From Spirochaetia bacterium (GTDB taxonomy: Bacteria; Spirochaetota; Spirochaetia; CADAEX01), in contig CAXXHA010000036.1 in the NCBI GenBank assembly GCA_963662265.2, positions 32,001 to 96,000 on the forward strand: DNA of 64,000 nucleotides, written 5' to 3'. The position numbers and the translations under genes are program-made. Of this stretch, positions 4,410 to 54,854 are shown in pieces. The notes beneath the pieces were generated by a model, which saw only the letters and a list, made by a program, of their open reading frames with translations, searched no databases and was not told where the DNA came from. The number at the start of each line of letters is the position of its first letter. Within the stretch, counting starts at the first letter, position 1.

Positions 4410-4470
4410 AGAAACTGGTATTAAAATACAATAAAAATCGGGGAAGCAGTTGATCCAGAAAGGATGAATT

Positions 4471-4821
4471 ATGATTTTAATAGTAGATGATACACCTTCT
4501 AATATTGATATTGTCATGGAAATAATAGGTGAAATTGATGATGTTGCTGTTGCTCTTGACGGAGAAGAAGCACTAGAAATTATCAAAGAGGATATTCCCG
4601 ATATTGTTCTTCTTGATATTGTAATGCCTGGAATAGATGGTTTTGAAGTATGCAGAAGAATTAAGGGAAATCCTGATACGGAAAAAATAGCTGTAATATT
4701 TCTTTCGGGAGATGGGGCTGAAGAGGAGAAGTCAAAAGCCGGAGAAATTGGAGCCTCCGGTTTTCTTGAAAAGCCGATTGATCCTGAAAAACTGCTTGCA
4801 GCAGTAAAAGCTTTTATATGA
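4471..4821 (+). CDS. Single-domain response regulator (CheY-like receiver)
   Basis: ILIVDD, LLDIVMP, FLEKP motifs; AGGA RBS upstream. Confidence 0.9.
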   Translation: MILIVDDTPSNIDIVMEIIGEIDDVAVALDGEEALEIIKEDIPDIVLLDIVMPGIDGFEVCRRIKGNPDTEKIAVIFLSGDGAEEEKSKAGEIGASGFLEKPIDPEKLLAAVKAFI

Positions 4822-4896
4822 AAAGAATATTGAGAAGAGATGCCTGATATGTTTTCCAGCTGAGAGTGGAATTCATATATAATTACCATATCATTC

Positions 4897-4925
4897 TTGA
4901 CTTCTGAAAATCATAATCCTATCCT
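4897..4925 (+). promoter_or_regulatory. Putative sigma70 promoter for the PhnD-like/GGDEF-EAL operon
   Basis: TTGACT-N17-TATCCT, 38 nt upstream of the ATG at 4964. Confidence 0.45.
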
Positions 4926-4963
4926 TAAATTTAACTGTAAAATAATTAAAAAAGGGTTGTTGA

Positions 4964-5923
4964 ATGCCGGTTCTGTTTAAATCTAAATACTGCATTATTT
5001 GTCTTCTAGTAATTCTCACCTGTACTGTGCTGCTTTCAGGATGTTTTTCAGAATCCGGAAAAAAAGAAGCGGAAAAAGATGCCGGGTTAAACAGCCCGGT
5101 TTATTCTGATTCCGTAAGCGGCAAAAAACTTGTGATAGGTGATGTTTCAGATGAGCCTACTAAAAAAATAAGAAGGTATCAGCCTTTTGCTGAATATATT
5201 GTTTCAGAAGACAGAATTCCCGGATACGGCATCGGAGAAGTATATGTAACAGATTCACTGGAAAAAATGACAGAGGAATTTGAAAAAGGCAATGTCCACA
5301 TAATTATTGAGGGAGCTTACAATGCCCTGAAAATAGCTGATAAGGCAGGGGCCTGCCGGATACTTCTGAACAACAAGGAGGGGCTGATATTTTTCAAAAG
5401 TTATTTTATAGCACTCAAAGATTCTCCCTGCAGCAGCCTTGAAGATCTGGGCGGTAAAACACTGGCTCTTGAAGATACCGAGTCCACATCAGGTTATTTC
5501 CTGCCGATTCTTGAACTTCAGAAAAACAATTTCAATGTTTCCGGTTTGAACGGAAATAATGAATATCTCAAGACAGTACTATCAGGCGAGGATGAAATAA
5601 TTATTCAGGATCTTTTTGACATGAGGGCGGATGCCGGGGTGTATTCTGAATATGATTTCGAAGAACTTAATAAAAATGTCAGGGAAAAGCTTAAAGTCAT
5701 ACATGTTACAGAAGCGCTTCCGCGGAGTCTTCTTATTCTTTCCCCTGCATTGAGTAAATCCGACTGTGAAAGGATTTCTGATACCTTACTTGAGTTGAGT
5801 AATTCTGAACAGGGAAAATCCATGCTTGAACATATCAACTCTGATGGTTTTTATTCTGTCAGGGATTTCAGCATTGCGGAAAATAATCTTGATTTATTAA
5901 TGGAAAAAGCCGGTGAAATATGA
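4964..5923 (+). CDS. PhnD/Phosphonate-bd-like substrate-binding lipoprotein (no cognate ABC genes)
   Basis: Lipobox LLSGC; motif LEDLGGKTLALEDTESTSGYFLP typical of the PhnD/PtxB fold. Confidence 0.8.
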   Translation: MPVLFKSKYCIICLLVILTCTVLLSGCFSESGKKEAEKDAGLNSPVYSDSVSGKKLVIGDVSDEPTKKIRRYQPFAEYIVSEDRIPGYGIGEVYVTDSLEKMTEEFEKGNVHIIIEGAYNALKIADKAGACRILLNNKEGLIFFKSYFIALKDSPCSSLEDLGGKTLALEDTESTSGYFLPILELQKNNFNVSGLNGNNEYLKTVLSGEDEIIIQDLFDMRADAGVYSEYDFEELNKNVREKLKVIHVTEALPRSLLILSPALSKSDCERISDTLLELSNSEQGKSMLEHINSDGFYSVRDFSIAENNLDLLMEKAGEI

Positions 5924-39380: not shown

Positions 39381-39647
39381 TTGAATTTAAAGAAAAAAAA
39401 AGCCTGGTACATATATATTATTGAGTGTGCAGACGGAACATATTATACTGGAATAACTACAGATACAGAAAGACGGATTGCTGAACACAATACATCAGGT
39501 ATTAAAGGTGCCAGATATACACGTGCAAGAAGACCTGTAAAACTTGTTTACTCCGAAAGAGTATCAGGCAGGTCGGAAGCTCTTAAACGGGAGAGCCGGA
39601 TTAAAAAAATGAGCAGAGCTGTAAAGGAAAAGCTTGTTTCCCGCTGA
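39381..39647 (+). CDS. GIY-YIG nuclease family protein (UPF0213)
   Basis: YIYIIECADGTYYTGIT...GARYTRARRPV...ALKRE..IK. Confidence 0.9.
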   Translation: MNLKKKKAWYIYIIECADGTYYTGITTDTERRIAEHNTSGIKGARYTRARRPVKLVYSERVSGRSEALKRESRIKKMSRAVKEKLVSR

Positions 39648-40738
39648 TGTGTTTACCGGAGGATTTTTTGGATACAATAAATTACAGTACTATTACACAA
39701 TGCGATTCTGAAGAACTTGTAAAACTTTCATTTTTTAATAATATTGGTAAGAGTATAGCATCTTCAAGAAGCCTTAAGAAAACTATTGAAAAGGTTATGG
39801 ATCATATAGGCGAGATATTTGCTCCCTATAACTGGTCACTTCTGCTTCGGAATCACACAACCGGAGACCTTACTTTCTATTCCGTGACAGGGGAAGCAAC
39901 AGAATCCCTTACAGGGAAAATTGTTAAAAAGGGAAAGGGTATTGTCGGATGGATAGCTGAAAACGGCAAATCCCTGATTATTGAAGATGTCAGTAAAGAT
40001 AAAAGATTTGACGGATCGTTTGATGAGATGAGCGGGTTTACGACAGAATCAATTATCGGTGTTCCTCTGAAAAGCAACGGAAAAGTATTCGGTGTTATAG
40101 AACTGGTCAATAAGCTTGATCTCACAGCTTTTACAGCATTTGACCTCAAGCTTCTCACAACAATTGCTGATTTTGCGGCAATCGCAATAGAAAAAGTTTA
40201 TTATCTTGCAAGGCTCAAAAAAATGGTCAATATTGATCCCCTTACAGGAGTCTATAACAGACGGTTTCTTCAGTTTTATCTTCAGAAGGAGCTTATGAGA
40301 AACAAAAGGGATAATACAGTTCTTTCTCTGCTCTTTATTGATATAGATGATTTCAAGATGCTTAACGATTCAAACGGGCATATTGCGGGAGATGAAATCT
40401 TAAAGGATGTTACTTCTGCTGTTTCCGATTCCATCAGGTCCTCAGATTCCCTTTTCCGTTTCGGGGGAGATGAATTTGTTGTGCTTCTTCCCAAAACAGA
40501 GAAAAAATCTGCAGAGAAAATTAGGGAACGTATAAACAGGACAATTAAAAAGCGTAAATTCCGGATCAGGTATTCTGTTACTACAGGATGTTTTCAGGCC
40601 GGATGTGAATCAGCGGAAGAGGTACTTTCCCTGGTTGATAAAGACATGTACCGCAATAAAAAAATGGGTAAAAACAGCAACGGCATTGATCTGTCTCTTC
40701 ACATAGAGGAGGAGATTGAATCTGAAGAAAACAGCTAA
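39647..40738 (+). CDS. GAF-GGDEF diguanylate cyclase
   Basis: GAF (GIVGWIA, GVIELVNK), DPLTGVYNRR, RSSD I-site, RFGGDEF. Confidence 0.92.
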   Translation: MCLPEDFLDTINYSTITQCDSEELVKLSFFNNIGKSIASSRSLKKTIEKVMDHIGEIFAPYNWSLLLRNHTTGDLTFYSVTGEATESLTGKIVKKGKGIVGWIAENGKSLIIEDVSKDKRFDGSFDEMSGFTTESIIGVPLKSNGKVFGVIELVNKLDLTAFTAFDLKLLTTIADFAAIAIEKVYYLARLKKMVNIDPLTGVYNRRFLQFYLQKELMRNKRDNTVLSLLFIDIDDFKMLNDSNGHIAGDEILKDVTSAVSDSIRSSDSLFRFGGDEFVVLLPKTEKKSAEKIRERINRTIKKRKFRIRYSVTTGCFQAGCESAEEVLSLVDKDMYRNKKMGKNSNGIDLSLHIEEEIESEENS

Positions 40739-40778: not shown

Positions 40779-43700
40779 ATGAAAAACAGAAATTTAAACC
40801 TGGGTATTGATGTCGGGTCTACAACAGTCAAGGCTGCAGTCATGGATCCGGTTAATTATTCTCTTCTCTATTCCGAGTACAGGCGGCATAATGCTGATCA
40901 GTCCGGAACTGTCAGGGATATACTTAAAAATATTACCGAAAAATTCCCCGATACTGTTTTTTCCGCAGCAGTCTGCGGAAGCGGCGGGCAGACTATAGCG
41001 AACAGGCTGGGTATAAAATTCATTCAGGAAGTTGTCGCAAATTCCCTGATGATAAGGAAATTTCATCATGACGTGAGGGTTGCAATCGAGCTTGGCGGTC
41101 AGGATGCAAAGGTTGTTTTCTTCCGGTATGATGAAGGCTCGGGGCAGCTTGTTCCCTCTGATATGCGTATGAACGGCAGCTGTGCAGGGGGGACCGGGGC
41201 ATTTATCGATCAGATTGCAGAGCTTTTAAGTGTAAGGACAGAAGAGATAGGAGCCCTGGCTGCTGAAGGGACTACTGTCTATGATATTTCAGGCCGGTGC
41301 GGTGTATTTGCAAAGACAGATATACAGCCCCTCCTTAACCAGGGTGTTTCCAAAAGCGATATAGCTCTTTCCTCTTTTCATGCAATTGCAAAACAGACTA
41401 TCGGAGGTCTTGCACAGGGGATGGATATCAGGCCTAAAGTCATTTTCGAGGGGGGCCCTCTGACTTTCAATCCCCGGCTTATCAAGGTTTTTCAGCAGCG
41501 GCTTTCACTATCCGATGATGAAATAATTATACCTGAAAACCCCGAGCTGATTGTGGCAAAAGGGGCAGCTCTCTCTGTCGATACAATGTTTGCTGATGCA
41601 GATACTGAATTCTCCCCTTCCGAAGGAATCGGGATAATTGATAAATGGATCTCGGGAATATCGGGATCTGTTTCAGAAGCAGCAAAGCCTTTTTTCACAG
41701 ATGAAAGCAGTTATGCAGATTTTCTTGCAAGGCATTCTGATAAAAGCTCATCATACATCTATGTTCCAGAAAAAGATGTTAAGAGTCTCGATGTATATCT
41801 TGGTATTGATGCCGGATCAACAACATCCAAATTTGTTCTCATAGACAGGGAAAACAGGATTGTCGATACATTTTATTCAGGAAACAGGGGAGAACCGCTC
41901 AAGGTTGTACAGTATGCTCTTCTCAGGATGAGAGACCGCTATGAAGCGCATGGGATAAAACTTAATATCCTGGGTGCAGGCGCAACCGGTTACGGCGAGC
42001 TCCTTTTTTCAAAAGCATTCAGAAGCGATTACCATACAGTAGAGACAGTTGCCCATGCAGAGGCTGCCCGGTATTTTGTCCCCGATGTAAGCTTCATACT
42101 CGATATCGGCGGACAGGATATGAAGGCTATCAACCTGAACAAGGGTGTAGTTACAGGTATTGTCCTTAACGAGGCATGTTCTGCCGGCTGCGGTTCTTTT
42201 GTAGAGACATATGCACGCTCATTGAATGTTTCTGTGGAAAAAATTGCAGAGTATGCTTTCAGATCAACATCCCCATCCCGCCTGGGGTCCCGATGCACTG
42301 TTTTCATGAACAGTTCAATAATTACGGAACAGAAAAACGGCAAGACAACAGAAGATATACTTGCAGGCATCAGCCGCTCAATAATTGAAAATGTTTTCAC
42401 AAAGGTTGTCAGAATTTCCAACTTCAATGATCTGGGAAATAAAATCGTGGTACAGGGGGGGACTTTCAAGAATGATGCAGTCCTCCGTGCTTTCGAGCAG
42501 TATACAGGTCGTGAAGTTGTAAGAGCACCGTTCCCCGGAGAAATGGGTGCTTTCGGTATTGCTCTGCTGACTAAAAAAAGCATTGAAGAAAGGAAAAAGG
42601 AAAATCCGGGTTTTATATCATCATTTACCGGTCTTGAAGATCTTGAAAATTTTTCCTATACAAAGTCTCCCGGAATAATCTGCCCCTTCTGTTCAAACAA
42701 CTGCAGCAGGACAGTAATAACATTCAGCCATGGAGATTCCTATATTACCGGGAATAGGTGCGAAAAAGGGCAGATACTTGGGGAAATAAAGAATCCTGAA
42801 ATCAGGGAAAAGCTTAAAAAAACCCATAAAAAACAGGAATCAGTCCCTGATATGTTCAGGCTTCATAATGAGCTTTTGTATTCAAATAATGATACACAGC
42901 TGCTCACGGAAAAGAGGGGAATAAAAATTGGGATTCCTGTTACTCTCGAGTTCTGGCACAGTCTCCCGTTCTGGAAAGCAGTTTTCACCTCGCTTGGATT
43001 TGATGTGGTTCTTTCCCCGAAATCAAGTTATGACATGTTTGAAAAAGGGCTCAAGTATGTGCCTTCAGATACAGTCTGTTTTCCAGCAAAGCTTCTTCAC
43101 GGTCATGTTGAGGAGCTTGCCGCAATGGGGGTGGACAGGATATTCAGTCCCATGATGGTAAGAATACCCAGGGAAAACAGAACTGCATTCGGGAACCATA
43201 CCTGTGTAATGCTTCAGGGATACCCGATGATTGTTGAAAAGAGCAATGAGATATTCGAACGTTTCGGCATAAATTTCGATCATCCGATTTTTCACTGGCA
43301 CAATGAAAAACTGAAATCAAAGCAGGCTGTTGACTGGCTTAATGAAACTTTCGGAATTGACAGGAAAACAGCTTTAAAAGCGGTGGAAGCCGGAAACAGG
43401 GCATCCGGGGAATTCAGAAACAGGATGACATATGAAGGGGAGAAGGTACTGAAATCTCTTGAAGGAACCAGGAAATTTGCAGTTGTTCTTGCGGGCCGTC
43501 CGTATCATTCCGATATGCTGATAAACCACAATCTTTCCAATTATTTCACCTCACAGGGTATTCCTGTTCTTTCCCTTGATTCGCTGTCTGCTGTAAATTC
43601 GGAAGATGTCGAAAAAATCAGGATGGAAACAACAATAACCTTCCATACCAGAATGATTTCCGCCGCAATTGCGGCTGCTTCCCACCCGAACCTTGAGATT

Positions 43701-45170
43701 GTACAGATTGTCAGTTTCGGCTGCGGCCATGATGCTGTTATTTCCGATGAAATGGTGAGGGAGCTTAAAAACCGGTCTGACAAGGAACTACTTATACTCA
43801 AGCTTGATGAAGGGGAATCTTCAGGCCCGCTTAACATAAGGATAAAATCATTCATAGAAACAGTATCAGCTCGGCGTAAGAACAGATCCCGCTCCATTGC
43901 TGACAAAATAAAGGAGAGGAGAATCCTCTATACAAAAAAGCACAGGAAGGAAAAAGTTATACTGGCGCCGAACCTGTCCCCCGCATTTACAGCACTGCTT
44001 TCTTCGATTATAAGCAGGAGCGGAATAAGAATGGAGCCTCTTCCCCTTGCCGGTGAACGGGCGATAGAGCTGGGGAAGAAATTTGTTCATAATGATATAT
44101 GCTATCCTGCCCAGGTCAATATCGGCGAGATGCTCGCAATTCTCGAAAAAGGGGAATATGATCCCTCTTCTGTCGCTCTCGGGCTTGCAAAAAACTGTGA
44201 GGCCTGCCGTGCCGGGCAGTATGCGGTTCTGGCCCGCAAGGCGCTTGATGAGGCAGGGTATCCTGAAGTCCCTGTTGTGACAACCGGTATAGATACAAAA
44301 AAAATGCATCCTGGGTTCAGGTTGTCGCTGCATCATCAGCTGCAGTCGCTGTGGGGGCTAACAATAATTGACGCGTATGAAATGATGCTGAGGCGTATCC
44401 GTCCCTATGAGAAATTCCCCGGAAGTACAGAGCGGATATTTGATCTTCATCTTAAAAGACTCTGCGACAATATCTCTCTCAATACAGGAAAACTGCTACG
44501 GATGCTTAAGGATGCTGTTGATGATTTCAACAGGGTTGAAAGCTATGAGACTGACAGAAAACCCCGTGTAGGCATTGTCGGTGAAATCCTGATGAATTAT
44601 CATCCTTCTGCAAACTGTTATATTGAAAAATATCTTGAAGAAAACGGGCTTGAAGTTGTGCAGCCTTCAATGCATGATTTTTTCCGAAAAACAGCTGTAA
44701 TAGAAAAGGAGATTGGAAAGAGAAGAATGGTTCCCCACCCGTTTCTTCATTATCTTCTCCATTCAGCAACAGATATTGCATATGAATATGTTCACAGGAA
44801 AGTATGGAACCTTGTCTGTTCAAATTTCCGGTTTAAAACTGAACATGATAATATTTACAGAATAGTCGAAAATATTGAACCTTTCATAGACAGGACCTAT
44901 ATCGGAGCCGAAGGGTGGAAACTTCCCGGTGAAATAATGTCCATGATCCAGGAAGGGGTGAACTCTTTTGTAATTCTGCAGCCTTTCGGCTGCCTCCCCA
45001 ACCATATCACAGGGCGGGGGATGATCAAGACAATCAAGAAAATCTATCCTAATGTACAGATTATCGCAATTGATTATGATCCTGATACAAGCCTGGGGAA
45101 TGTGGAAAACAGGCTCCAGATGCTTATTCTCAATGCAAAGGAAATTGAGGCAGCCTCGGTAACTGTATAA
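40779..45170 (+). CDS. 2-hydroxyacyl-CoA dehydratase activase-related fusion protein (two ASKHA ATPase domains, DUF2229, dehydratase-like C-terminus)
   Basis: GIDVGSTT/GIDAGSTT, CAGGTG/CSAGCG, RCGVF/RCTVF, SFGCGHD, QPFGCLPNH. Confidence 0.88.
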   Translation: MKNRNLNLGIDVGSTTVKAAVMDPVNYSLLYSEYRRHNADQSGTVRDILKNITEKFPDTVFSAAVCGSGGQTIANRLGIKFIQEVVANSLMIRKFHHDVRVAIELGGQDAKVVFFRYDEGSGQLVPSDMRMNGSCAGGTGAFIDQIAELLSVRTEEIGALAAEGTTVYDISGRCGVFAKTDIQPLLNQGVSKSDIALSSFHAIAKQTIGGLAQGMDIRPKVIFEGGPLTFNPRLIKVFQQRLSLSDDEIIIPENPELIVAKGAALSVDTMFADADTEFSPSEGIGIIDKWISGISGSVSEAAKPFFTDESSYADFLARHSDKSSSYIYVPEKDVKSLDVYLGIDAGSTTSKFVLIDRENRIVDTFYSGNRGEPLKVVQYALLRMRDRYEAHGIKLNILGAGATGYGELLFSKAFRSDYHTVETVAHAEAARYFVPDVSFILDIGGQDMKAINLNKGVVTGIVLNEACSAGCGSFVETYARSLNVSVEKIAEYAFRSTSPSRLGSRCTVFMNSSIITEQKNGKTTEDILAGISRSIIENVFTKVVRISNFNDLGNKIVVQGGTFKNDAVLRAFEQYTGREVVRAPFPGEMGAFGIALLTKKSIEERKKENPGFISSFTGLEDLENFSYTKSPGIICPFCSNNCSRTVITFSHGDSYITGNRCEKGQILGEIKNPEIREKLKKTHKKQESVPDMFRLHNELLYSNNDTQLLTEKRGIKIGIPVTLEFWHSLPFWKAVFTSLGFDVVLSPKSSYDMFEKGLKYVPSDTVCFPAKLLHGHVEELAAMGVDRIFSPMMVRIPRENRTAFGNHTCVMLQGYPMIVEKSNEIFERFGINFDHPIFHWHNEKLKSKQAVDWLNETFGIDRKTALKAVEAGNRASGEFRNRMTYEGEKVLKSLEGTRKFAVVLAGRPYHSDMLINHNLSNYFTSQGIPVLSLDSLSAVNSEDVEKIRMETTITFHTRMISAAIAAASHPNLEIVQIVSFGCGHDAVISDEMVRELKNRSDKELLILKLDEGESSGPLNIRIKSFIETVSARRKNRSRSIADKIKERRILYTKKHRKEKVILAPNLSPAFTALLSSIISRSGIRMEPLPLAGERAIELGKKFVHNDICYPAQVNIGEMLAILEKGEYDPSSVALGLAKNCEACRAGQYAVLARKALDEAGYPEVPVVTTGIDTKKMHPGFRLSLHHQLQSLWGLTIIDAYEMMLRRIRPYEKFPGSTERIFDLHLKRLCDNISLNTGKLLRMLKDAVDDFNRVESYETDRKPRVGIVGEILMNYHPSANCYIEKYLEENGLEVVQPSMHDFFRKTAVIEKEIGKRRMVPHPFLHYLLHSATDIAYEYVHRKVWNLVCSNFRFKTEHDNIYRIVENIEPFIDRTYIGAEGWKLPGEIMSMIQEGVNSFVILQPFGCLPNHITGRGMIKTIKKIYPNVQIIAIDYDPDTSLGNVENRLQMLILNAKEIEAASVTV

Positions 45171-45481
45171 TTTTATTACAGCTTCCGATTTAATTTATTC
45201 TGCAGCTGTTTCTCTGTATTGCCCTGAAATCAGTATGCCGGAAAGCTTTTTTGTTTTCAGGGCAGGGAATTAACCATAAAATAGCATTCAATCCTGAAAT
45301 TCTGCTAAATTTTATATGATACAGGTGGCGATAAATAAAAGGGGAACTGTTTTTTTCCGGTTTTATTTATCTCATTCAGTCGTATGTGATATTGGAAAAA
45401 AGCAGTTGTCTGATGTTTGATATTGGATAATAAAGAGACTCCTCAGTCTCCGGAAAAGTTTAAAAAAGGTGAAGACCCGTT

Positions 45482-46792
45482 GTGAATGTACTAAGACAGG
45501 AAAGCAGATTCAGGATTTTTTGGGAAATATTTATTCTCGCAGTAACAATAGCAGTATTTATTGAAATACCTGTTTCAGTAGTGTTCAGCAGTACTCCTGT
45601 AAGCAGGATACTGTTACTGGAATTTTTAATTTCCTTTATATTTATTCTGGATATAGTAATCAAGCTGAATACAGCTCTTGTAATAAAAATGGATGTAATA
45701 ACTGACCGGCATGTGATTGCATCGGTATACATGAAAAAATGGTTCTGGATAGACCTTGCTGCAGCATTTCCGTTCTGGATCTTGCTCCATATATTTTCTA
45801 TTCCGGTTTCAGCCGGGATTCTCGCGGCTTTCCGGCTTGTCAGGGTATTCAAGATATTCAGGCTTATCCAGACACTCAGCAAGCTTAAGAGGCTGAGCTA
45901 TGTCAATCCTAACATAATGCGGATGATTCTCCTTATTTTCTGGATTATTATTATTGCCCATTTTGTTGCATGCGGCTGGATAATCCTGGAAGGTGTATCA
46001 GATGAGCAGGAACACTCCATGCAGTATCTGCATGCTTTCTACTGGACAATAACAACCCTGACAACAATAGGTTACGGTGATATCACCCCATCCGGGAAGT
46101 TCCAGATAATCTATACAATATTTGTTGAAATCATCGGCGCCGGTTTATACGGTTTTATAATCGGTAATATTGCAAACCTTATTGCAAACATTGATATTGC
46201 ACGCGCACAGCACAGGAACAAGCTTGAAAAAATCAATACTTTCATGCAGTACCGCAATATTCCCCATTCCCTGCAGAAGAGGGTTGATGATTATTATAAT
46301 TACCTGTGGGAGAGCAGGAGAGGTTATGATGAATCATCAGTTCTTAAGGATCTTCCCGGTTCTCTGAAGACTTCTGTCTCCATATTCCTGAACAAGGATA
46401 TGATTGAAAAGGTTCCCCTTTTCAAGGGTGCAGATGACGCCCTGATCAGGGAGATAATTCTCCAGCTTGAACCGGTAGTCTATACTCCGGATGATTATAT
46501 TGTCTATGAAGGTGATATCGGGTATGACATGTTTTTCATAAGCAAGGGATCTGTGGATGTCATGTCGGGCGACGAATCAATAGTATATGCAACACTCTCT
46601 GCAGGGCAGTTCTTTGGTGAGATTGCACTCCTCTTGAGTGTTCCCCGTACAGCAACAATCAAGGCAAAGGAATACTGTGATGTTTACAGGCTTGAAAAGG
46701 AAATATTTGACAGGGTTATTGAAAGATATCCCGATTTTGCGGAAACAATAAGAAAGCTTGCCGAAAAAAGACGGGAAGAGCTTGGAAAATAA
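45482..46792 (+). CDS. Cyclic nucleotide-gated K+ channel (SthK-like)
   Basis: S1-S4 (WIDL, RLVRVFKIFR), selectivity filter TTIGYGD, C-linker, CNBD FFGEIALL..PRTAT. Confidence 0.93.
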   Translation: MNVLRQESRFRIFWEIFILAVTIAVFIEIPVSVVFSSTPVSRILLLEFLISFIFILDIVIKLNTALVIKMDVITDRHVIASVYMKKWFWIDLAAAFPFWILLHIFSIPVSAGILAAFRLVRVFKIFRLIQTLSKLKRLSYVNPNIMRMILLIFWIIIIAHFVACGWIILEGVSDEQEHSMQYLHAFYWTITTLTTIGYGDITPSGKFQIIYTIFVEIIGAGLYGFIIGNIANLIANIDIARAQHRNKLEKINTFMQYRNIPHSLQKRVDDYYNYLWESRRGYDESSVLKDLPGSLKTSVSIFLNKDMIEKVPLFKGADDALIREIILQLEPVVYTPDDYIVYEGDIGYDMFFISKGSVDVMSGDESIVYATLSAGQFFGEIALLLSVPRTATIKAKEYCDVYRLEKEIFDRVIERYPDFAETIRKLAEKRREELGK

Positions 46793-46891
46793 GGGAGCTG
46801 CTGATATTTTCTCCAGCTTTCCATCCGGGGCGCTACCCTTTCAGGGGATATTATTCAATGTTCAGAGATATTGAGATTATAGAGTTGCCCT

Positions 46892-46920
46892 TTTACCCCG
46901 GAATATATCCGGGGTATAAT
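46892..46920 (+). promoter_or_regulatory. Putative sigma70 promoter overlapped by a palindromic operator
   Basis: TTTACC-N17-TATAAT with TACCCCGGA-ATATA-TCCGGGGTA (46894-46916). Confidence 0.55.
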
Positions 46921-46945
46921 TATAGTTCAGGAATGGTGTTTGTTT

Positions 46946-48178
46946 ATGGATAATGATAAGAAAAATCAGATAGCTGCCTATCTTTTTAAGGTGTTTAACT
47001 CGGAAAACATAATTCCATCAGAAGTTGTTGCATCGCTTTTCAAGATGATGCCCTCTTTTGATCCTGCTTTTTCAACCGGAGTTCTCCAGGAATGGAAGAA
47101 AATAACTGAAACATATAAACAGGGGGGGAAGAATCCCCGGGAAATCAATTCTCCCCTTATAATTACAAGGGGACTCATGGAGGGAACTCCCGATACTAAT
47201 CTGAAGATGTACCTGCCTGAGGAAAAAATACTTATAAACAGGCAGCTTTTCAGAAACAAGCTGTCGAGTGTGAATTTCGGCAGTCTTACAGCTGATATTG
47301 AAAGAAGCCTTCTTGATGAACTTAAAAATGAATCAATAGCGCTTTCCGATCAGGAAGTCCTGATCTATTACAACCTTCTCAAGATAAATATGATGGCAAG
47401 ACTCTATGCATCAAGCCAGGGTAGAGCCACTCCCGGCAAGGACCCTGCTGTAAGCGGGGACAGCCGCAATTTCAAAACTGTGGGAGAAGGCGCAGGGAAT
47501 TTTCCAGACAAGATAATATCCCTTCTGTTTGAGAACTTTGCAGATCTTAACAAGCTTTCCTCTGTCAATGAAAAGAGAAATATTGACAGTAATCTCCTTA
47601 ACGCGGCAGTAAAGAGCAAGATATCAAAGAGTGTGCATAATCCGAGAATTTATCTTCTGATGTTCGGGTACGGCACAGATAAATACATGCTGTTTGTAAA
47701 GGAATATATAAAAATGGTTGTTTCCCGGTGGGGAGGCAACGAGGATGAGATTTTTGCCTCTTTTGCAGCGTACCAGCTTCTGAATTCAGCTTCAGAGGAT
47801 ATTATCGGCGAGATGGATCTTGCTGTGAGCCTCAGGAATTTCATATCAGACCGGCTCGGAAGAATACATCCTGTTTATTACTGTGCTATTCTTTTTGTCA
47901 CTGTTTTTACCTACATTCTTGTGATGCAGGTTGTTGAGATTGCGGGAAAATATGTATCTTCCCCTGAGCCCCAGAAATCAAAACTGCTTAAACTGTATAA
48001 TTCCGAGGAAAGAATCAACATGATGATTTCCAATGCTTTCAATATTGCGGCAGGCAAAATAGCGTCCTACAAGTCTGAATCAAGGGAAATAGTGCCAAAT
48101 ATGAAAAAATTTATTTCTAAATACAGCAACCTTGTAAAACCTGAAGATATGTTCAGAACAATCTATAAATTCCAGTAG
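46946..48178 (+). CDS. Hypothetical protein (about 410 aa, one hydrophobic segment)
   Basis: Long ORF with codon usage like its neighbours, ending 12 nt before the next gene; no motif recognised. Confidence 0.75.
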   Translation: MDNDKKNQIAAYLFKVFNSENIIPSEVVASLFKMMPSFDPAFSTGVLQEWKKITETYKQGGKNPREINSPLIITRGLMEGTPDTNLKMYLPEEKILINRQLFRNKLSSVNFGSLTADIERSLLDELKNESIALSDQEVLIYYNLLKINMMARLYASSQGRATPGKDPAVSGDSRNFKTVGEGAGNFPDKIISLLFENFADLNKLSSVNEKRNIDSNLLNAAVKSKISKSVHNPRIYLLMFGYGTDKYMLFVKEYIKMVVSRWGGNEDEIFASFAAYQLLNSASEDIIGEMDLAVSLRNFISDRLGRIHPVYYCAILFVTVFTYILVMQVVEIAGKYVSSPEPQKSKLLKLYNSEERINMMISNAFNIAAGKIASYKSESREIVPNMKKFISKYSNLVKPEDMFRTIYKFQ

Positions 48179-48190
48179 CAAGGACAGAGT

Positions 48191-49771
48191 ATGATATTAA
48201 AACCGAGAAAAGGATTTTCATTTATAGTAAAATTTATTGATTTTTTTAATCCTGTTATTGTTCTTCTTTCCATTGCAGGATTGATTCTGGAATATACCCA
48301 ATACAAGGAATATGTTCTGTATCCGAACAGAATAATTGATATGGTTTTTGTTGTTGATTTTCTTCTCAGGCTGATTTCATTCCCGTCAGGAAGATATTTC
48401 TTCAAATCCTACGGATGGGTTGATTTCCTCGCATCTATTCCTGGTTTTACTGCATTCATGCAGTTCGGGCAGTATTTCGGATTATTCAAGGTGATGAGAA
48501 TAGGAAGGTTTTTCAAGATAATCAGGGTATTGAGATTCCTCCGTATTTTCAGCTTCCTTAAAAAGATGAAAGGGGATTCCGCTTTCATACAGGAAAGAAT
48601 AATGAAAATCGGTGTTACAATTGTTATTATCTTTGTAACAGGCCTCGGTTTTACAGATTATTTCATAACACAGACTCTTTCCTCCCTTAAGGGGGAAAAT
48701 ATCAGGACTGTCATGGAGCTTTCCCGCAACAAGGTGGATAAGCTTGCAGAACGTGTTGAAAATGTTGCCTATTATTCAGACAGGGGTATTCTTTATGACA
48801 GCGAAGGGAAAACAGCTGATACTTACAGTGATTACGCTGAAAAACTAAACAGTCTTAACATCTGGTACACTGAAGTCAGGTTTTCCGACAGCTCGGCAGA
48901 TCATGACGGTTACCTGATACCTGTTGAAGGTATACTTGTTACTTCTGAAGATATAATGGTAAAGCATGACAATATCATGCTTATACTGATTGCCTCCCTT
49001 ATTATGATACTTGTCATACTAATATTCTATATCGGGTATATTTTTGCCAAGGACATGAAAATAGTCCAGCTGATAAATGATTCGGTTGATGCCGGAGATT
49101 ACTGGCTTCTGAAAGAGGAGGCAAGGAAATACTCATCGACAGGAGAACTGGCTGTTGAAGAGGGTGAGGATGAAATAGTCAGCCTGATTAAAATGGCTGC
49201 AGTACTGGCTGAAAGAGCTGAAGTATCTGCAGGGGGTATGGCAGGAATGGACAGCATATTTTCAGATACCGGTTTTTCCGGTGATTTCCCGCAGCTTGAC
49301 ACCTCATTCCAGAGTATGCCTCCCGATAATGAACATGATATGCCTGCGATTGATTCAGGAACAGGTGAAGTCGAAGTGGAGATGCCGGTTATTTCTGATG
49401 TTGATGAAGATGAGGAAATAAATGAACTTGCAGAAGTTCTTTCAGATTTCGGCGGATTCACTGATGAATTCGGAAAAGCTTCAATATCTGAAAACAGTAC
49501 TGAAACTTATGCCGAATCTGAAAACAGTTTAATGTCTTCAGGTTCAGAAACTATGCCTTATTCAGCCGATACATCTGATTCTGAAACAGTGACGGAAAAA
49601 CTTATGACAATTGAAAAAACTGTCAGGGAAATAAACAGTAAATTATCGTCACTTGAAAATGTCCGGGAAAGCACTCTTGAGTCAGTTGCAAGAGATGCTG
49701 CTTCCCGTGCTGTTAAAATAACGTCAAAATCCATTGGTGAATATATACATAAAAAACTGTCCGGTAAGTGA
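48191..49771 (+). CDS. Voltage-sensor-domain protein without pore (S1-S4, TM, periplasmic region, TM, HAMP-like, acidic tail)
   Basis: S2 FVVDFLLR, S3 WVDFLASIP, S4 K..R..R..K..R..R..R; no pore/filter motif; DEIVSL HAMP-like motif. Confidence 0.8.
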   Translation: MILKPRKGFSFIVKFIDFFNPVIVLLSIAGLILEYTQYKEYVLYPNRIIDMVFVVDFLLRLISFPSGRYFFKSYGWVDFLASIPGFTAFMQFGQYFGLFKVMRIGRFFKIIRVLRFLRIFSFLKKMKGDSAFIQERIMKIGVTIVIIFVTGLGFTDYFITQTLSSLKGENIRTVMELSRNKVDKLAERVENVAYYSDRGILYDSEGKTADTYSDYAEKLNSLNIWYTEVRFSDSSADHDGYLIPVEGILVTSEDIMVKHDNIMLILIASLIMILVILIFYIGYIFAKDMKIVQLINDSVDAGDYWLLKEEARKYSSTGELAVEEGEDEIVSLIKMAAVLAERAEVSAGGMAGMDSIFSDTGFSGDFPQLDTSFQSMPPDNEHDMPAIDSGTGEVEVEMPVISDVDEDEEINELAEVLSDFGGFTDEFGKASISENSTETYAESENSLMSSGSETMPYSADTSDSETVTEKLMTIEKTVREINSKLSSLENVRESTLESVARDAASRAVKITSKSIGEYIHKKLSGK

Positions 49772-49887
49772 CAGAAGTGCTTTTATTCGCTGTTTTAATA
49801 TAATTATTTGTTATATTACAATTACATTACAATCAGAAAATGCAATGATGATTGACGACAGTTATTATCTCTGGTATTTTTATTTTT

Positions 49888-50994
49888 ATGAAGATAGCGC
49901 ATATACACAGCGGCGTAAGGGGAATAGCTTCTTATGCTCTTAACTTATATAATTATTTCGAATCGGCAGGCGACAGGACTCTTATTGTCAGTGAAGCAAA
50001 ATGGACAAAAAAGAGAATACCTGTTTATGAACCAAAATCCTATCTTATCGGCGGAGTAATGCCATGGGCCAGGAATGTAGGAGAGGTGGGGGAACAACTT
50101 ACAGAGTTTCAGCCTGATATTCTTCACCATCATCACCCATCAGGCAGGCTTGATTTTCATATCTCCAAGTTTCAGAAATCACTCGAATGTCCGCTGGTCT
50201 GTACATTCCATATGTCAGTCGGGTCCAGAAAATATATGGTTGATAAATGGATGAATGCCTTTTTTCTTGCGACAAGGCGAAATTTCCGGAACGCGGACTG
50301 TTATGTTGCAATCAGCAAATTTGTTAAAAAGCAGCTTGAAGAGATCGGAGGAGTTCCTAAAGAGAAAATTGTTCTCCTGTATGCCGGTGTTGATCCTGAA
50401 GTATTCAAACCTGTTCAGTATGAAAACCATGATACACTTAATATAACATTTGTCGGACAGATTACCCCGGAAAAGGGGATTGACCAGCTGATTGATGTTG
50501 TTACACGGCTGAGTGAATACAGAAAAGTCAAACTTAACATTGTAGGCAACGGGACATTGAAACCTCTTCTCATGAAGAAGACACAGAATAACCGTGCAAT
50601 CAACTGGGTCGGATTTCTCAACAGTCCGGAAAAAGTCGGTGAGTTTTATGCAAAGTCAGATGTCACTGTTCTCCCGACAAGATGGGATGAGGCTTTTTCA
50701 TATATCCCTCTTGAATCTCTTTCAAGCGGAACTGCGGTTATAGCCTCCCGGTGCGGCGGGAATATGGAAGCTATACAGGAAAATGAAACAGGTATTCTGT
50801 TTACTCCCGGAAAAGGGGATGAACTCTTTGATATTCTCAGAAAAGTTGAAATCCCCGAGTTATGGGATATGGGCGCCAGAGGAAGAGAGTATATTCTGAA
50901 TAAACATACACTTCAGACATTCGGAGATAAATACAAGATGCTGTATCAGGACCTGTTAAGCAGACCTTTTTTCCCACGGCAGATTGATTCCTGA
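49888..50994 (+). CDS. Glycosyltransferase family 4
   Basis: FVGQITPEKG, EAFSYIPLESLSSG (EX7E); start revised to ATG 49888. Confidence 0.88.
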   Translation: MKIAHIHSGVRGIASYALNLYNYFESAGDRTLIVSEAKWTKKRIPVYEPKSYLIGGVMPWARNVGEVGEQLTEFQPDILHHHHPSGRLDFHISKFQKSLECPLVCTFHMSVGSRKYMVDKWMNAFFLATRRNFRNADCYVAISKFVKKQLEEIGGVPKEKIVLLYAGVDPEVFKPVQYENHDTLNITFVGQITPEKGIDQLIDVVTRLSEYRKVKLNIVGNGTLKPLLMKKTQNNRAINWVGFLNSPEKVGEFYAKSDVTVLPTRWDEAFSYIPLESLSSGTAVIASRCGGNMEAIQENETGILFTPGKGDELFDILRKVEIPELWDMGARGREYILNKHTLQTFGDKYKMLYQDLLSRPFFPRQIDS

Positions 50995-51111
50995 TCCAGA
51001 TTGCTGAATCGTTTAAAAAGCATCATATGCTGATTTTTCCGGTTTTTTAAATGACAAAAAAATTGACTGCGTGATAACATATCAGTTTAAATAGAAATTA
51101 TAGACACTCAT

Positions 51112-51135
51112 AAAAACCCGCTTTTGCGGGTTTTT
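51112..51135. terminator. Bidirectional intrinsic terminator
   Basis: AAAAACCCGC-TTTT-GCGGGTTTTT between convergent genes. Confidence 0.85.
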
Positions 51136-51269
51136 CTTTGAAGATCCACCCGCCCGGCACCTTTACCCGAAGGGGGGGGAGAAAGTATAAAGGAACTATT
51201 TTTTATTATTCAGGAAATTATTATCATATAAGAATCTCTTGTCTGAATACAGAATAAAATGAGACAAAA

Positions 51270-51319
51270 TAAAAAACCCCGTCTATTGGATTTTTGTCCA
51301 ACAAAAGGGGTTCATATCA
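51270..51319 (-). mobile_element. Remnant left end of an IS3-family (IS150/IS861-like) element, no transposase
   Basis: Minus strand TGATATGAACCCCTTTTGTTGGACAAAAATCCAATAGACGGGGTTTTTTATT follows the TG..CCCC....GTT.GACA IRL plus inverted-copy pattern. Confidence 0.5.
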
Positions 51320-51341
51320 CAGTCCGGTTCGGGCTTTTTTA

Positions 51342-53051
51342 TCAGAACCTGAGCTTTCCGGAAAGGGCAAGTTCGATGTCGTTCAATGTCCTTCCGCTGT
51401 CATGTTTGTAGTTTGAAATATTTATCCAGTAGAAATCAGCACCCCACGATAATCTGCGCTCCGGGAAAAGAATTCCGTGAAGACCTGTTATAAGTTCCTT
51501 TTCAGGTGTTCCTGTAAGTGTAGTCCTGCTGTTTGCGTCAGACCCCTTGTCATAAGAGAGCGGATCATCCAGCGAATCATTAAGCTCTCCTGTCAGTTTA
51601 TATCTTGCATCCAGTGACACTGAATAAATATCCTTGTGGTCATATTCTATTTTTGAATAAATTACAATTGCATCAGGACCATGCTCATATCCTATCGGCT
51701 TGTTTACATACTCATATCTGTCAGGTTCAATATTGGACCACATCCTTCTCCTGTTTGTGAATCTTGTGAGGGGGTGCCACCTGTTATAGAAATAGGGGTC
51801 AGTAAACGCAAATTCACTGTTGAATGTCAGATATCCGGTTTCTACCGGTTTGATATATCTTAATCCTGTCAGAAACCCGTAGGCCCCCGGGCGTGTATCT
51901 TCCCCCTCATATCCCGGAACCTGAAACTCATCTACAGCAGCCTGTGCATAGATATTTAAGCCTCTTGAAACTGTGTAGTCTGCTTCGAAGGAAATCATTG
52001 CGTTTGAGTATTCAGGGGCAAAAAGGTTGTGGAAGACAAATGCCGGGTTCAGTTCTGTGATATTCAAATATTTGTTTCCGAAGACTATTGCTTCATTGAT
52101 GTTGATATTCAGTTTTTCAGAAGCCCTGAATTCTGTCCTGTGAGCGAGGAAAGCTTTGAACTGCTCCTGGTAGTTGTCATAACCCCCTGCCAGCCCGTTT
52201 TCATATGTGCCTGTATCAGCATCAATATCCTCTTCCTCAGAAGTCAGCCATGCATCCATGCCTATATAAATAAAAGACATCTTGAAGTCTTCCCAGTAGG
52301 TGGTGAAGCGTATCAGGTTGTAGAAATCCGAGTAATCGGAGAGCAGCAGGTTACCTGTTTCTCCCATTCCCCAGTCAGCCTTATCCCTTCCGAACTGCAG
52401 GTTCCAGTGTTCTCCCCCGAAAGAAAGGAATGCCCTGAAAGGGAAGTACCAGTCAAATTCCCTTGGATTTGCCGGAATGCTTGTATAGTTGTTGTCAATA
52501 TCTGTTACTGCCCTGTATTCCTCTTTAAGCGTCAGGTCCAGTGTCGCGTAAAACCCGCTGCCGAACCATCCCTCAAAAGGTACTGAAAGGAGGGGATTTC
52601 TTTCTTCAAACCCATGCTCCCATTCCTTTCTGTTTTCATTTCCCTTAACATAGCCATCAATATTGATTTCTCCTGAAATCCTGTAGCAGAAATCCCCTTT
52701 TTTCCCGCCGTCAATATCTTCTGACAGTTCCGAGTTTATTATCTTGTATGAGTATTCTTCGGCAGGCGAAAGCAGCTTTACAGGAAGCCGGTCAAGAATC
52801 ATGATTGCCTCATCGACTGACCAGGGCCTTGCCGTTGACGGAAGTGCCATGCTGTTTATCATGTAGAGCCTGTCAATTTCCCTGTACAGGGGGGAGAAAA
52901 CCGGTATGATTCTCTGGTAATTTTTCTTATCGGAATTGTTTTTCTCTGCAGATGCCGGAATCAATACAGCAGTCATGAAAATGACTGCATATGCAAGGAG
53001 GATAATTTTTTTTATTTTTTTAAAATCAGCTGATGTTTTTTTTTCTCTCAT
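51342..53051 (-). CDS. Capsule assembly Wzi-like outer-membrane beta-barrel (paralog 2)
   Basis: Signal peptide, RPWS N-terminal motif, FGRD...WG....GNLLLSD, AHR.E, C-terminal aromatic (KLRF). Confidence 0.7.
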   Translation of the reverse strand: MREKKTSADFKKIKKIILLAYAVIFMTAVLIPASAEKNNSDKKNYQRIIPVFSPLYREIDRLYMINSMALPSTARPWSVDEAIMILDRLPVKLLSPAEEYSYKIINSELSEDIDGGKKGDFCYRISGEINIDGYVKGNENRKEWEHGFEERNPLLSVPFEGWFGSGFYATLDLTLKEEYRAVTDIDNNYTSIPANPREFDWYFPFRAFLSFGGEHWNLQFGRDKADWGMGETGNLLLSDYSDFYNLIRFTTYWEDFKMSFIYIGMDAWLTSEEEDIDADTGTYENGLAGGYDNYQEQFKAFLAHRTEFRASEKLNININEAIVFGNKYLNITELNPAFVFHNLFAPEYSNAMISFEADYTVSRGLNIYAQAAVDEFQVPGYEGEDTRPGAYGFLTGLRYIKPVETGYLTFNSEFAFTDPYFYNRWHPLTRFTNRRRMWSNIEPDRYEYVNKPIGYEHGPDAIVIYSKIEYDHKDIYSVSLDARYKLTGELNDSLDDPLSYDKGSDANSRTTLTGTPEKELITGLHGILFPERRLSWGADFYWINISNYKHDSGRTLNDIELALSGKLRF

Positions 53052-53083
53052 TCATTAACTCCTGACACTGTTTATCTGCAATA

Positions 53084-53110
53084 TATTTTCCCTGAAAAAC
53101 AGGGAAAATA
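53084..53110. other. Intergenic hairpin between the wzi-like paralogs
   Basis: TATTTTCCCTG-AAAAA-CAGGGAAAATA, 11-bp stem. Confidence 0.5.
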
Positions 53111-53150
53111 ATTTTGTATGTTTTAAATATTCTATGTAATAAAAGTAATG

Positions 53151-54854
53151 TTAATATGCCTGCCATTTACCCGAAAGCGTCAGTATGCTGTTCCATTCAT
53201 GATCACCTTTATTCTTGTTTTTGTTATGCACGTATTCAACAGTAAGGGCAGCTGACAGTTTGACACCGTAAAAAGGTATTCTGTACTCTGTGTAAAGTGT
53301 CGAATCAAGAGTTGTTTCCCTGACAGCCCCGTCAATCCCGTAGTCCAGGAAGTTGTAGTTTTCAACATCCTCATCATAAAGACCGCCCATTCCCCATGTG
53401 ATACCGTCATCATGGGCATGGGTATTTACATCTCCGAATGCGTCCTGAATAAATCTGAAAGTAATACCGTGTGTTCTTCTTATATCTGCATCGTAACGGA
53501 AATCAAATGACAGCATATGCGCGTTGGGGGGCAGTGTATGACCGATACTGACTCCGTCATGTGTGTAGTTGTTTCTATGTCCGTTCACCTCTTTGTGTGT
53601 ATATACCCACTGGTTAAGGTATGTGTATTCTGTTGTGAAAGTCAGGCCGTCTGCAAAGCTGTAGTTCCTGTATCCCAGCGTTATACCCATTTCATTATGG
53701 TAGTAGGCCGGGTTGAAAAGCTGTCCGAAGTCCCAGTCATCGACAAATAGGGAAAGATAGAGGTTTGACTGTTTAAATCTGAAAAGGAAATCAAATCCTC
53801 CCATCTTGTTATCCAGGTCTCCCTGGTTAACCTCGCTTATGTAGTAGAGTGAAAACGGGTTTGCATAGGCAAGTTCAAATCTTTCTGAATACATGACAGT
53901 TTCGAAGAAAGAGAACTGAAACCAGTCACTGAGCTGGTATTCGATTCTGTGCCCTGTTATCAGTTTTCCTTTATCTTCATCTGCCTCATCATCTGTCTGT
54001 GTTAAAAATCCTGTAATCCATGAAAAGTATATTTTTTCACCGACTGGTATGTCGAATGTCAGGTATTCATATGGAACTGATGTTGCTGAGAGCGCAAGGT
54101 TTGCATACTGGCTGGGCCCCCATGATATTGAATCCCTTCCGAAAGTTATCATTGCAATGTCAGCATCAATTGTTGTCTGGTTTAGCTGGTTCATCCGTAT
54201 CGAAAGTTCTGGATCTCCGACTGCCCGGTTAGCATCAAGGTTGAAACTTGTACCGCCGTTTGCAAGATTTACTGTGTACATATTGAAATCCGGTTTTGCC
54301 GGAGTTTCGAATTTCCTGTAGGGAGCTTCTTCCCATGTTTCAAAGGCAAGGTATGAATCTGTTGAAAGACCCAGGTAGAGCCTGTTCCCGACCTGAACAT
54401 CAATTTTTAGTTCTGCTCCCGGTTCAATCACTGTGTCTTTAACAGAATCGGGAGATGTATTTACATTAAAGCGGGGAGCTATGTTCAGTCCTGTTGTAAA
54501 TTTCTCTGTCTCGTTTCTGAGGAGAGAAAAATGTTCCCCTTCAATACGTTTTTTATGGGACTGGAGTTCTTCTATATCTTTTTCTGTGAATTCTTCAGGA
54601 TCTGTTTTCCAGCTGTTTTCCATTTTTTTAAGATATTCAATCACCCTTTTTTCTGTATATGGCCTGACAGAAGGGAGGTATTCTATCCATCCCTTTGCAT
54701 ATCCCTTGTCAAGGAAAAGATATACCGGATCTTCTAGAGTAATATTTTTCAGGCTTTCCGCGCCTGCCGGAAATGCCGCTGCTGTAAGTATGAATGCTGC
54801 AATCAGCAGCCTGAAAACAGCTTTAGAAGTTTTTTTGCAATATGCTGGTCTCAT
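53151..54854 (-). CDS. Capsule assembly Wzi-like outer-membrane beta-barrel (paralog 1)
   Basis: Signal peptide, RPYT, FGRDSISWGP..ANLALS, GHRIE, DNKMGG, C-terminal WQAY. Confidence 0.72.
   Translation of the reverse strand: MRPAYCKKTSKAVFRLLIAAFILTAAAFPAGAESLKNITLEDPVYLFLDKGYAKGWIEYLPSVRPYTEKRVIEYLKKMENSWKTDPEEFTEKDIEELQSHKKRIEGEHFSLLRNETEKFTTGLNIAPRFNVNTSPDSVKDTVIEPGAELKIDVQVGNRLYLGLSTDSYLAFETWEEAPYRKFETPAKPDFNMYTVNLANGGTSFNLDANRAVGDPELSIRMNQLNQTTIDADIAMITFGRDSISWGPSQYANLALSATSVPYEYLTFDIPVGEKIYFSWITGFLTQTDDEADEDKGKLITGHRIEYQLSDWFQFSFFETVMYSERFELAYANPFSLYYISEVNQGDLDNKMGGFDFLFRFKQSNLYLSLFVDDWDFGQLFNPAYYHNEMGITLGYRNYSFADGLTFTTEYTYLNQWVYTHKEVNGHRNNYTHDGVSIGHTLPPNAHMLSFDFRYDADIRRTHGITFRFIQDAFGDVNTHAHDDGITWGMGGLYDEDVENYNFLDYGIDGAVRETTLDSTLYTEYRIPFYGVKLSAALTVEYVHNKNKNKGDHEWNSILTLSGKWQAY

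Follow-up and report, generated by a model that had tools for sequence, protein, structure and literature searches.

We analyzed a 64,000-nt stretch of DNA from a Spirochaetia bacterium (CADAEX01; assembly GCA_963662265.2, contig CAXXHA010000036.1, positions 32,001-96,000), and refer to this entire stretch as the window. At positions 45482-49771, the window contains three open reading frames, all in the same orientation (+), which we call gene 1, gene 2, and gene 3. An initial annotation of this region described three co-oriented genes, two of which have S1-S4 voltage-sensor domains, one being a full cyclic nucleotide monophosphate (cNMP)-gated K+ channel and the other lacking a pore. The reading frames and Pfam spans confirm this description. 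Here, we focus on genes 2 and 3, which form a conserved pair in Spirochaetota and encode, respectively, an orphan protein and a predicted voltage sensor without a canonical pore. Genome labels (G000-G405, with G000 being the window genome) and locus labels (L0xx) follow our own numbering. The features of the locus are as follows.

45482-46792 (+): gene 1, an SthK-type cyclic-nucleotide-gated K+ channel of 436 amino acids with S1-S6, a C-linker, and a cyclic-nucleotide-binding domain (CNBD), assigned from Pfam and PDB-chain matches.

46793-46945 (+): the 153-bp spacer between the channel gene and gene 2, with a promoter-like site and a hairpin.

46946-48178 (+): gene 2, a putative partner protein from an orphan, predicted all-alpha family, 410 amino acids from the ATG (412 amino acids from an upstream TTG at 46940).

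48179-48190 (+): the 12 bp that separate gene 2 from gene 3, in which AAGGA precedes the ATG.

48191-49771 (+): gene 3, a putative pore-less voltage-sensor protein of 526 amino acids with six predicted transmembrane (TM) helices.

48209-48565 (+): the predicted S1-S4 voltage-sensor domain of gene 3, residues 7-125, assigned from a structure match, a profile match, and column counts.

48581-49093 (+): TM5 (131-177), a periplasmic alpha/beta insert (178-252), and TM6 (253-301) of gene 3, from the secondary structure of the AlphaFold2 (AF2) model.

49052-49123 (+): the acidic juxtamembrane helix of gene 3 past TM6, from column counts over 67 family members.

49226-49759 (+): the predicted disordered acidic linker (346-465) and conserved C-terminal helices (465-523) of gene 3.

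Gene 3 matches the Pfam family Ion_trans over residues 15-154 with a score of 40.5 bits (cut-off 25). The match corresponds to model positions 3-143 of 241, a span that takes in S1-S4 and none of the pore half, and no match to Ion_trans_2 was found for gene 3. The AF2 model has a mean predicted local distance difference test score (pLDDT) of 66.9; local values are about 80 in S1-S3 and 86-89 from the outer half of TM5 through the periplasmic insert and TM6. Residues 4-123 of the model superpose on the voltage sensors of NaVEh, Cav1.1, Ci-VSP, CatSper, and Kv4.2 (Z 10.7-11.1, root-mean-square deviation (rmsd) 2.9-3.9 Å, 114-120 residues), and a profile match was obtained to S2-S4 of Kv2.1 (E 1.9e-5). 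To count conserved columns, we used an alignment of 67 members of the gene 3 family. S4 has a basic residue at every third position (K100, R103, R106, K109, R112, R115, and R118), and each of these seven positions is lysine or arginine in 65-67 of the 67 members. The charge-transfer centre is also retained: F53 and D78 are present in 67/67 members and D56 in 64/67, with a glutamate in one more, and these residues line up with the S2 F-x-x-E and the S3 aspartate of Kv2.1. R60 is found in 67/67 members as well. These residues are kept in a family that diverges down to about 20-35% identity and in which all reading frames are intact. Without selection on voltage sensing, it would be difficult to account for the retention of both the gating charges and the charge-transfer centre.

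Between TM5 and TM6 we found neither a re-entrant pore helix nor a selectivity filter, and a G[YF]G motif is absent from this loop in 67/67 members. The loop is poorly conserved, holds a variable alpha/beta insert in most members, and has a length of 85-112 residues in 64 of the 67, the remaining three having 13, 15, and 56 residues. TM5 and TM6 of the model match generic helical hairpins only. Directly after TM6, an acidic helix is strongly conserved, with D288, L294, D297, S298, and A301 in 67/67 members and D303 in 65/67, and further downstream the predicted disordered linker (residues 346-465) contains 30 aspartate and glutamate residues and a single lysine or arginine. No phosphatase family (PTEN-like or C2) was found in the 67 members, among which Ion_trans alone recurs (57/67). 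With these results, we conclude that gene 3 encodes a complete and conserved S1-S4 voltage sensor followed by two predicted helices that lack a P-loop.

The initial annotation had raised the possibility that the pore-less sensor works with the 410-amino-acid product of gene 2. We approached this idea by comparing loci. With a gene 2 profile, we collected 13 loci from reference genomes and one from metagenomes, which have Spirochaete labels wherever a label is given. All 12 related loci whose DNA extends past gene 2 have a gene 3 homologue as the next gene, as does the window; L031 and L032 end inside gene 2 and are not part of this count. From the opposite direction, a gene 3 profile was used to search 401 Spirochaetota genomes spread over the phylum. 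Nine of them contain the family, which outside the window occupies 9 loci, and at 6 of these a gene 2 homologue lies immediately upstream. When all loci are considered, the pair is present at 19 of 21 assessable gene 2 loci and at 19 of 22 sensor loci. There are no near-duplicates among the 19 pair loci, and the junction between the two genes measures -4 to 30 bp in every one of them. The two families also track each other across genomes, in that the partner family was detected in 10 of the 401, namely all nine sensor genomes and G144, where the match is a fragment at a contig end in an assembly that is 80% complete. Taken together, the comparison gives strong support to the proposed partnership. 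On this comparative evidence, we conclude that genes 2 and 3 are almost always translationally coupled neighbours that co-occur genome by genome, that the conserved unit is this pair and not the trio, and that the pair is restricted to Spirochaetota.

We also looked for a conserved third partner, and found no recurrent family among 71 neighbours at 14 pair loci, the commonest being Response_reg with 5/71. This count leaves out L020, L021, L030, and L041, which are close kin of included loci, and the neighbours in the window were scanned separately. The other neighbours vary from locus to locus and include MaoC dehydratases, a DM13 protein, a tRNA synthetase, and solute-binding proteins. Because these neighbours are heterogeneous, only the pair appears to be conserved.

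Some loci depart from the usual arrangement. In two genera of another Spirochaetota family (L034:5508-8201 and L035:6229-8609), the sensor gene has no adjacent partner and shares a 4-bp overlap with an HflX-like GTPase gene, and a third unpaired sensor gene is a second, divergent paralogue in G282. The partner genes of these two genera stand apart from the sensor gene and adjoin an M16 peptidase gene (L045 and L046). At two loci of one genus (L040:6213-8617 and L041:5393-7734), a short partner of 239 amino acids, which corresponds to the C-terminal half of gene 2, occurs with a divergent sensor of 537-558 amino acids. The sensor copy of L040, which was the one of these two loci to be scanned individually, is undetected by Pfam Ion_trans.

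Gene 2 itself has no match in Pfam or NCBIfam. A word-based search among 5.8 billion proteins returned 21 relatives, and when 1.84 billion cluster representatives were searched exhaustively with an HMMER profile, 58 proteins were found, all of which are family members or fragments. The family consists of a long form of about 400 amino acids and a short form of about 220-250 amino acids that equals the C-terminal half, and it is this half, from about residue 170 to the end, that forms the conserved core. An invariant motif, LPEEKILIN, is located at residues 90-98 (47213-47239). The AF2 model is all-alpha with a pLDDT of 77.1. A hydrophobic helix at residues 309-336 (47870-47953) reaches a Kyte-Doolittle 19-residue peak of 2.21 and contains the conserved residues Q328 and E331, and the charges that flank it weakly favour a topology with the N-terminus inside. 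This helix is likely to be a single membrane span in the window protein, and its status is less certain across the family.

Structure and profile searches gave little for gene 2. Foldseek detected no similar fold in the PDB (best E 0.69), a search of the ESM Atlas gave no usable match, and the best matches in a PDB sequence-profile search had E values of only 0.035 and 0.17. In a VIA-align fold search, the best Z was 6.3. For residues 179-404, about 15 of the 50 matches listed were phosphodiesterase (PDE)/HD-type domains with Z 4.7-6.0 and rmsd 4.6-6.4 Å over 135-190 residues, a range that is common for helical proteins. Such alignments are suggestive beside a cNMP-gated channel, yet they lie inside the noise range. 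In the 35-member gene 2 alignment, we looked for the His/Asp metal ligands of such enzymes (H...HD...D) and found no invariant or near-invariant histidine and no invariant aspartate, and none of the 35 members has an HD or PDEase Pfam match, even at E 1. Given the noise-range Z scores and the lack of conserved His/Asp ligands, we do not call the product of gene 2 an enzyme. A reading of the locus as a defence system was also rejected: PADLOC finds no defence-system match for gene 2 or gene 3, and its match to gene 1 arises solely through the CNBD, which is shared with Pycsar effectors.

We then asked whether the products of genes 2 and 3 are predicted to associate. Complex prediction using both alignments gave a score of 0.35 (runs of 0.39, 0.35, and 0.33), and the best of three controls scored 0.00. 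The runs had at least 66% of contacts in common, with a partner pLDDT of at least 69. Of 80 solved complexes, 58 reach the pass mark of this procedure, as do 2 of 110 mismatched pairs, and passes at or below 0.60 comprise 7 of those 80 complexes and both of the passing mismatches. Because the genomic evidence had made the pairing likely beforehand, we counted the prediction as modest corroboration, and it lends weak backing to an association between the two proteins.

Our leading hypothesis, to which we give even credence, is that this two-gene Spirochaetota operon encodes a membrane complex whose output, driven by membrane potential, is a non-conductive signal. According to this model, the products of genes 2 and 3 would form one membrane complex, in which S4 of gene 3 would move with the membrane potential. 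The S4-TM5 linker, the TM5/TM6 hairpin, and the acidic helix after TM6 could relay this movement to the partner, whose helical domains would be the output, acting through protein-protein contact or another non-conductive signal. The arrangement would parallel voltage-sensing phosphatases and SLC9C1, but with the effector as a separate polypeptide. In the window family, the SthK-type channel encoded directly ahead of the pair could set the potential that the sensor reads.

Several observations weigh against this model. No enzymatic or signalling domain is recognisable in gene 2 by Pfam, NCBIfam, fold, and profile searches. In 8 of 35 members, the hydrophobic helix peaks below 1.6 and so misses the usual threshold for a transmembrane span. 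A search for RNA runs covering 45200-49900 found none that contain the locus. The complex score lies in a range that is more often wrong than right unless the pairing is likely beforehand. Three sensor loci, all from one family (G301 and G282), have no adjacent partner; these two genomes contain a strong gene 2 homologue elsewhere (E 4.5e-143 and 7.2e-140). The related genomes are non-independent samples, and the counts are therefore given without statistics. Finally, a conducting pathway would contradict a non-conductive output, and we consider such a pathway unlikely if it runs through TM5/TM6 and very unlikely if it runs through the sensor itself.

The main alternative is that gene 3 forms an unconventional voltage-gated channel or transporter that lacks a P-loop, with a pore lined by TM5 and TM6 of several subunits and perhaps by the partner helix. 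We regard this as unlikely, though a serious contender. Gene 3 retains the helix count of S1-S6 and an S4-S5-like linker, residues in and around TM5 and TM6 are conserved (S130, Q134, R136, G141, D156, F279, Y280, and G282), and the weak best matches in Foldseek are whole Kv and KCNQ subunits (E 3.6e-3). The partner could also contribute its one conserved hydrophobic helix, with Q328 and E331 inside it. However, similarity to Ion_trans ends at model position 143 of 241, and the loop that would have to supply a filter has no filter motif; two members reduce it to 13-15 residues, and most carry a variable alpha/beta insert there. The resemblance of the modelled TM5/TM6 to generic hairpins likewise argues against a dedicated pore.

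A second alternative comes from the initial annotation, which made the cNMP-gated channel the upstream element of a three-gene module. Gene 1 matches Ion_trans over residues 13-237 (83.5 bits), Ion_trans_2 over residues 150-234, and cNMP_binding over residues 332-416 (46475-46729). It aligns at full length, residues 10-432, with the SthK chain 7rsh_A (E 2.8e-119), and it also matches the LliK-type structure 5v4s (E 6.3e-99). Its K+ filter TIGYGD at residues 195-200 (46064-46081) and its phosphate-binding cassette FGE...PRTAT both align with those of SthK. Gene 1 thus combines a six-TM core, a K+ filter, a C-linker, and a CNBD in a single chain, as expected of SthK and CNG/HCN channels, and we noted no difference from SthK in the filter, the C-linker, or the CNBD. 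Judged by these alignments, gene 1 is an ordinary orthologue of SthK, the cyclic-nucleotide-gated K+ channel of Spirochaeta thermophila. Channels of this type occur in 91 of the 401 sampled Spirochaetota genomes (E <= 1e-40). Genes 1 and 3 encode the only Ion_trans proteins with a sensor in the window genome, and its sole further Ion_trans match (G000:C13:99439-99705) covers the pore half only (model positions 130-240) in a frame of 396 amino acids. We rejected the idea that the gene 3 sensor is a recent duplicate of the gene 1 sensor, as the two share 25% identity over 71 residues (E 6e-4).

In the three-gene module, cNMP would open the channel, the potential would change, and the sensor would read the potential and tell the partner. 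The gene order (BcrAD-type activase, channel, gene 2, gene 3) is the same in 4/4 window-family genomes that have the pair, which represent two genera and show 47-63% protein identity for the most distant genome. Between the channel gene and gene 2, the window has 153 bp and G001 about 150 bp of different sequence, but G002 and G009 have only 23 and 20 bp, respectively, an operon-like spacing, and in these two relatives the three genes look co-transcribed. The channel is present in 5 of the 9 pair-bearing genomes of the sample compared with 86 of the other 392, and genes 1 and 3 being the only voltage-sensor proteins of the window genome also fits the module. On the other hand, the flanking BcrAD-type and GT4 genes are equally syntenic in the window family, so the order may be plain synteny. 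The channel adjoins the pair in only 4 of 19 pair loci, all from the window family, and in none of the 15 pair loci outside it, of which L023, L028, and L029 have less than 0.9 kb of upstream DNA and are not judgeable. Among pair-bearing genomes, an SthK-type channel is encoded on another contig in G096, G117, G282, and G301, and none was found at E 1e-40 in G387, G405, G045, and G098. We therefore consider the module distinctly unlikely, and it is unsupported as a general design: across Spirochaetota, genes 2 and 3 are linked, whereas the channel is linked to them in the window family alone. Outside that family, the sole cNMP-related gene near any pair locus encodes a 439-amino-acid fusion of a BrkB-type membrane domain with a CNBD (L031:2023-3339, -), located 4.5 kb upstream of the partner gene on the other strand.

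The initial annotation had also pointed to a hairpin and a separate putative promoter ahead of gene 2, and the 153-bp spacer of the window with its promoter-like site does speak against a single module. Both elements exist. The promoter-like site (TTTACC-17-TATAAT, 46892-46920) has 10 of 12 consensus matches, and the hairpin, with a 9-bp stem, lies between its hexamers at 46893-46916. Neither stands out, however. The region contains 17 promoter-like sites where 15.1 +/- 4.2 would be expected, folding of the intergenic sequence is within the normal range (z -1.33), and neither element is kept in the nearest relative. A scan of 46793-46945 found no terminator 3' of the channel gene on the + strand. 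Because the gap is only 20-23 bp in two relatives and the sequence is unconserved, the promoter-like site and the hairpin do not appear to be conserved features. The short gaps in these relatives also mean that a functional link between the channel and the pair is possible within the window family. From the distribution of the genes, we conclude that channel adjacency is lineage-specific and lies outside the conserved design.

A third alternative is that gene 3 is a decayed channel remnant or passive scaffold that has lost both its pore and its sensing, with the linkage to gene 2 reflecting a structural role in the membrane. The sensor family is indeed small and patchy (9/401 genomes) and comes with no recognisable output domain, but a remnant would not be expected to keep its gating charges and charge-transfer centre in 64-67 of 67 members at about 20-35% identity, nor to have all of its reading frames intact, and we consider this account highly improbable. 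Conduction through the sensor is known among pore-less sensor proteins, with Hv1 and omega currents as examples. Such conduction of protons or other ions through the gene 3 sensor domain itself, with the partner as a modulator, is the least probable of the alternatives and very remote in our estimation: S4 has seven basic residues and no tryptophan, whereas this tryptophan is described as totally conserved in Hv1 in a 2023 review (PMC10377628), and S1 has no mid-membrane aspartate, D17 and E34 sitting at the helix ends.

The surroundings of the locus were recorded as well. Directly upstream of gene 1, positions 40779-45170 encode a 1463-amino-acid fusion of two BcrAD/BadFG ATPase domains with a DUF2229 CoA-enzyme-activase domain, which is syntenic in all four related genomes. 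On the other side, positions 49852-54854 contain a GT4 glycosyltransferase gene and then two tandem Wzi-like capsule-assembly genes (569 and 567 amino acids) on the opposite strand. The window is rich in signalling genes, which at 153-8348 and 39647-40738 include a 1418-amino-acid hybrid kinase (PAS, HisKA, HATPase, two receivers, and Hpt), a single-domain receiver, a PAS-GGDEF-EAL protein, and a GAF-GGDEF protein.

To our knowledge, voltage sensors that act on non-pore targets are known only from a few eukaryotic proteins (the voltage-sensing phosphatases (VSP), Hv1, TMEM266, and SLC9C1). Among the closest parallels to gene 3 are the voltage-sensing phosphatases Ci-VSP and TPTE, in which a pore-less S1-S4 sensor controls a non-channel effector, as we infer for the pair. 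The Ci-VSP sensor 4g7v superposes on the gene 3 model with Z 11.0 and rmsd 3.1 Å over 118 residues. These phosphatases differ in being eukaryotic and in having a PTEN-like phosphatase fused in the same chain, whereas gene 3 has no phosphatase domain, two extra TM helices, and a separate orphan partner. In the sperm Na+/H+ exchanger SLC9C1, a voltage sensor regulates a non-channel membrane protein in a system that also senses cyclic nucleotides, and the SpSLC9C1 sensor matches the gene 3 model with Z 9.0. There, however, transporter, sensor, and CNBD are one polypeptide, while the pair has no transporter domain and the CNBD belongs to a separate channel that is linked in one family only. Hv1 and TMEM266 (HVRP1) resemble gene 3 as pore-less sensors with cytoplasmic helical tails, but they are eukaryotic, with four TM helices and three S4 arginines plus a tryptophan, whereas gene 3 has six TM helices and seven S4 charges and comes with an obligate partner gene. 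KCNQ1-KCNE and Kv4-DPP6, which are among the weak top matches in Foldseek, resemble the pair in joining a sensor-bearing subunit to a partner with one hydrophobic helix. KCNE and DPP6 tune a real K+ pore, in contrast to the pair, which has no canonical pore and a helical partner of about 400 amino acids in every sensor-bearing genome sampled.

The 2023 review mentioned above states that, judging from database searches, prokaryotic voltage sensors always occur together with a selective pore domain, and it likewise reports that Hv channels were not found in prokaryotes (PMC10377628). Two broad reviews of voltage sensors bring in bacteria for channels only (PMC13661669, PMC13095418). Neither a bacterial pore-less sensor nor the gene 3 family is described in the open-access papers and preprints that we searched. 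The gene 3 family would thus be a counter-example to the rule that prokaryotic sensors always come with a pore, and one that has a defined genetic partner.

What the pair might signal is a matter for speculation, and one context points to motility. At two related loci from Spirochaete metagenome-assembled genomes (L027:5162-10396 and L030:5139-10339), the pair ends a co-oriented cluster of a 125-amino-acid CheY-like receiver, CheX, and a kinase, the latter being a 653-amino-acid MASE6-Hpt-HATPase_c protein whose stop codon lies 3 bp ahead of the partner gene. This cluster is the only signalling context seen beside the pair, and the other loci are without it. Two papers from 1981 and 1983 reportedly dealt with membrane voltage in the chemotaxis of Spirochaeta aurantia. 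According to a review of spirochaete motility (PMC7225975), phosphorylated CheY (CheY-P) diffuses too slowly to account for fast coordination of motors more than 10 μm apart. Because the pair is confined to Spirochaetota, a chemotaxis operon accompanies it at two loci, and CheY-P diffusion is limiting, a role in motility is hinted at. The pair could be a spirochaete-specific voltage receptor for motility, which would provide the long-sought fast, CheY-independent coordination of the motors at both cell ends and a molecular basis for the voltage-dependent chemotaxis reported for S. aurantia, and in the window family the SthK-type channel may be the transmitter. We consider this proposal quite improbable as it stands. 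If true, it would make the pair a candidate for the old observations of voltage-dependent behaviour in long spirochaete cells. More generally, the pair would offer a compact bacterial system in which to ask how S4 movement reaches a non-channel effector and what bacteria signal by membrane potential.

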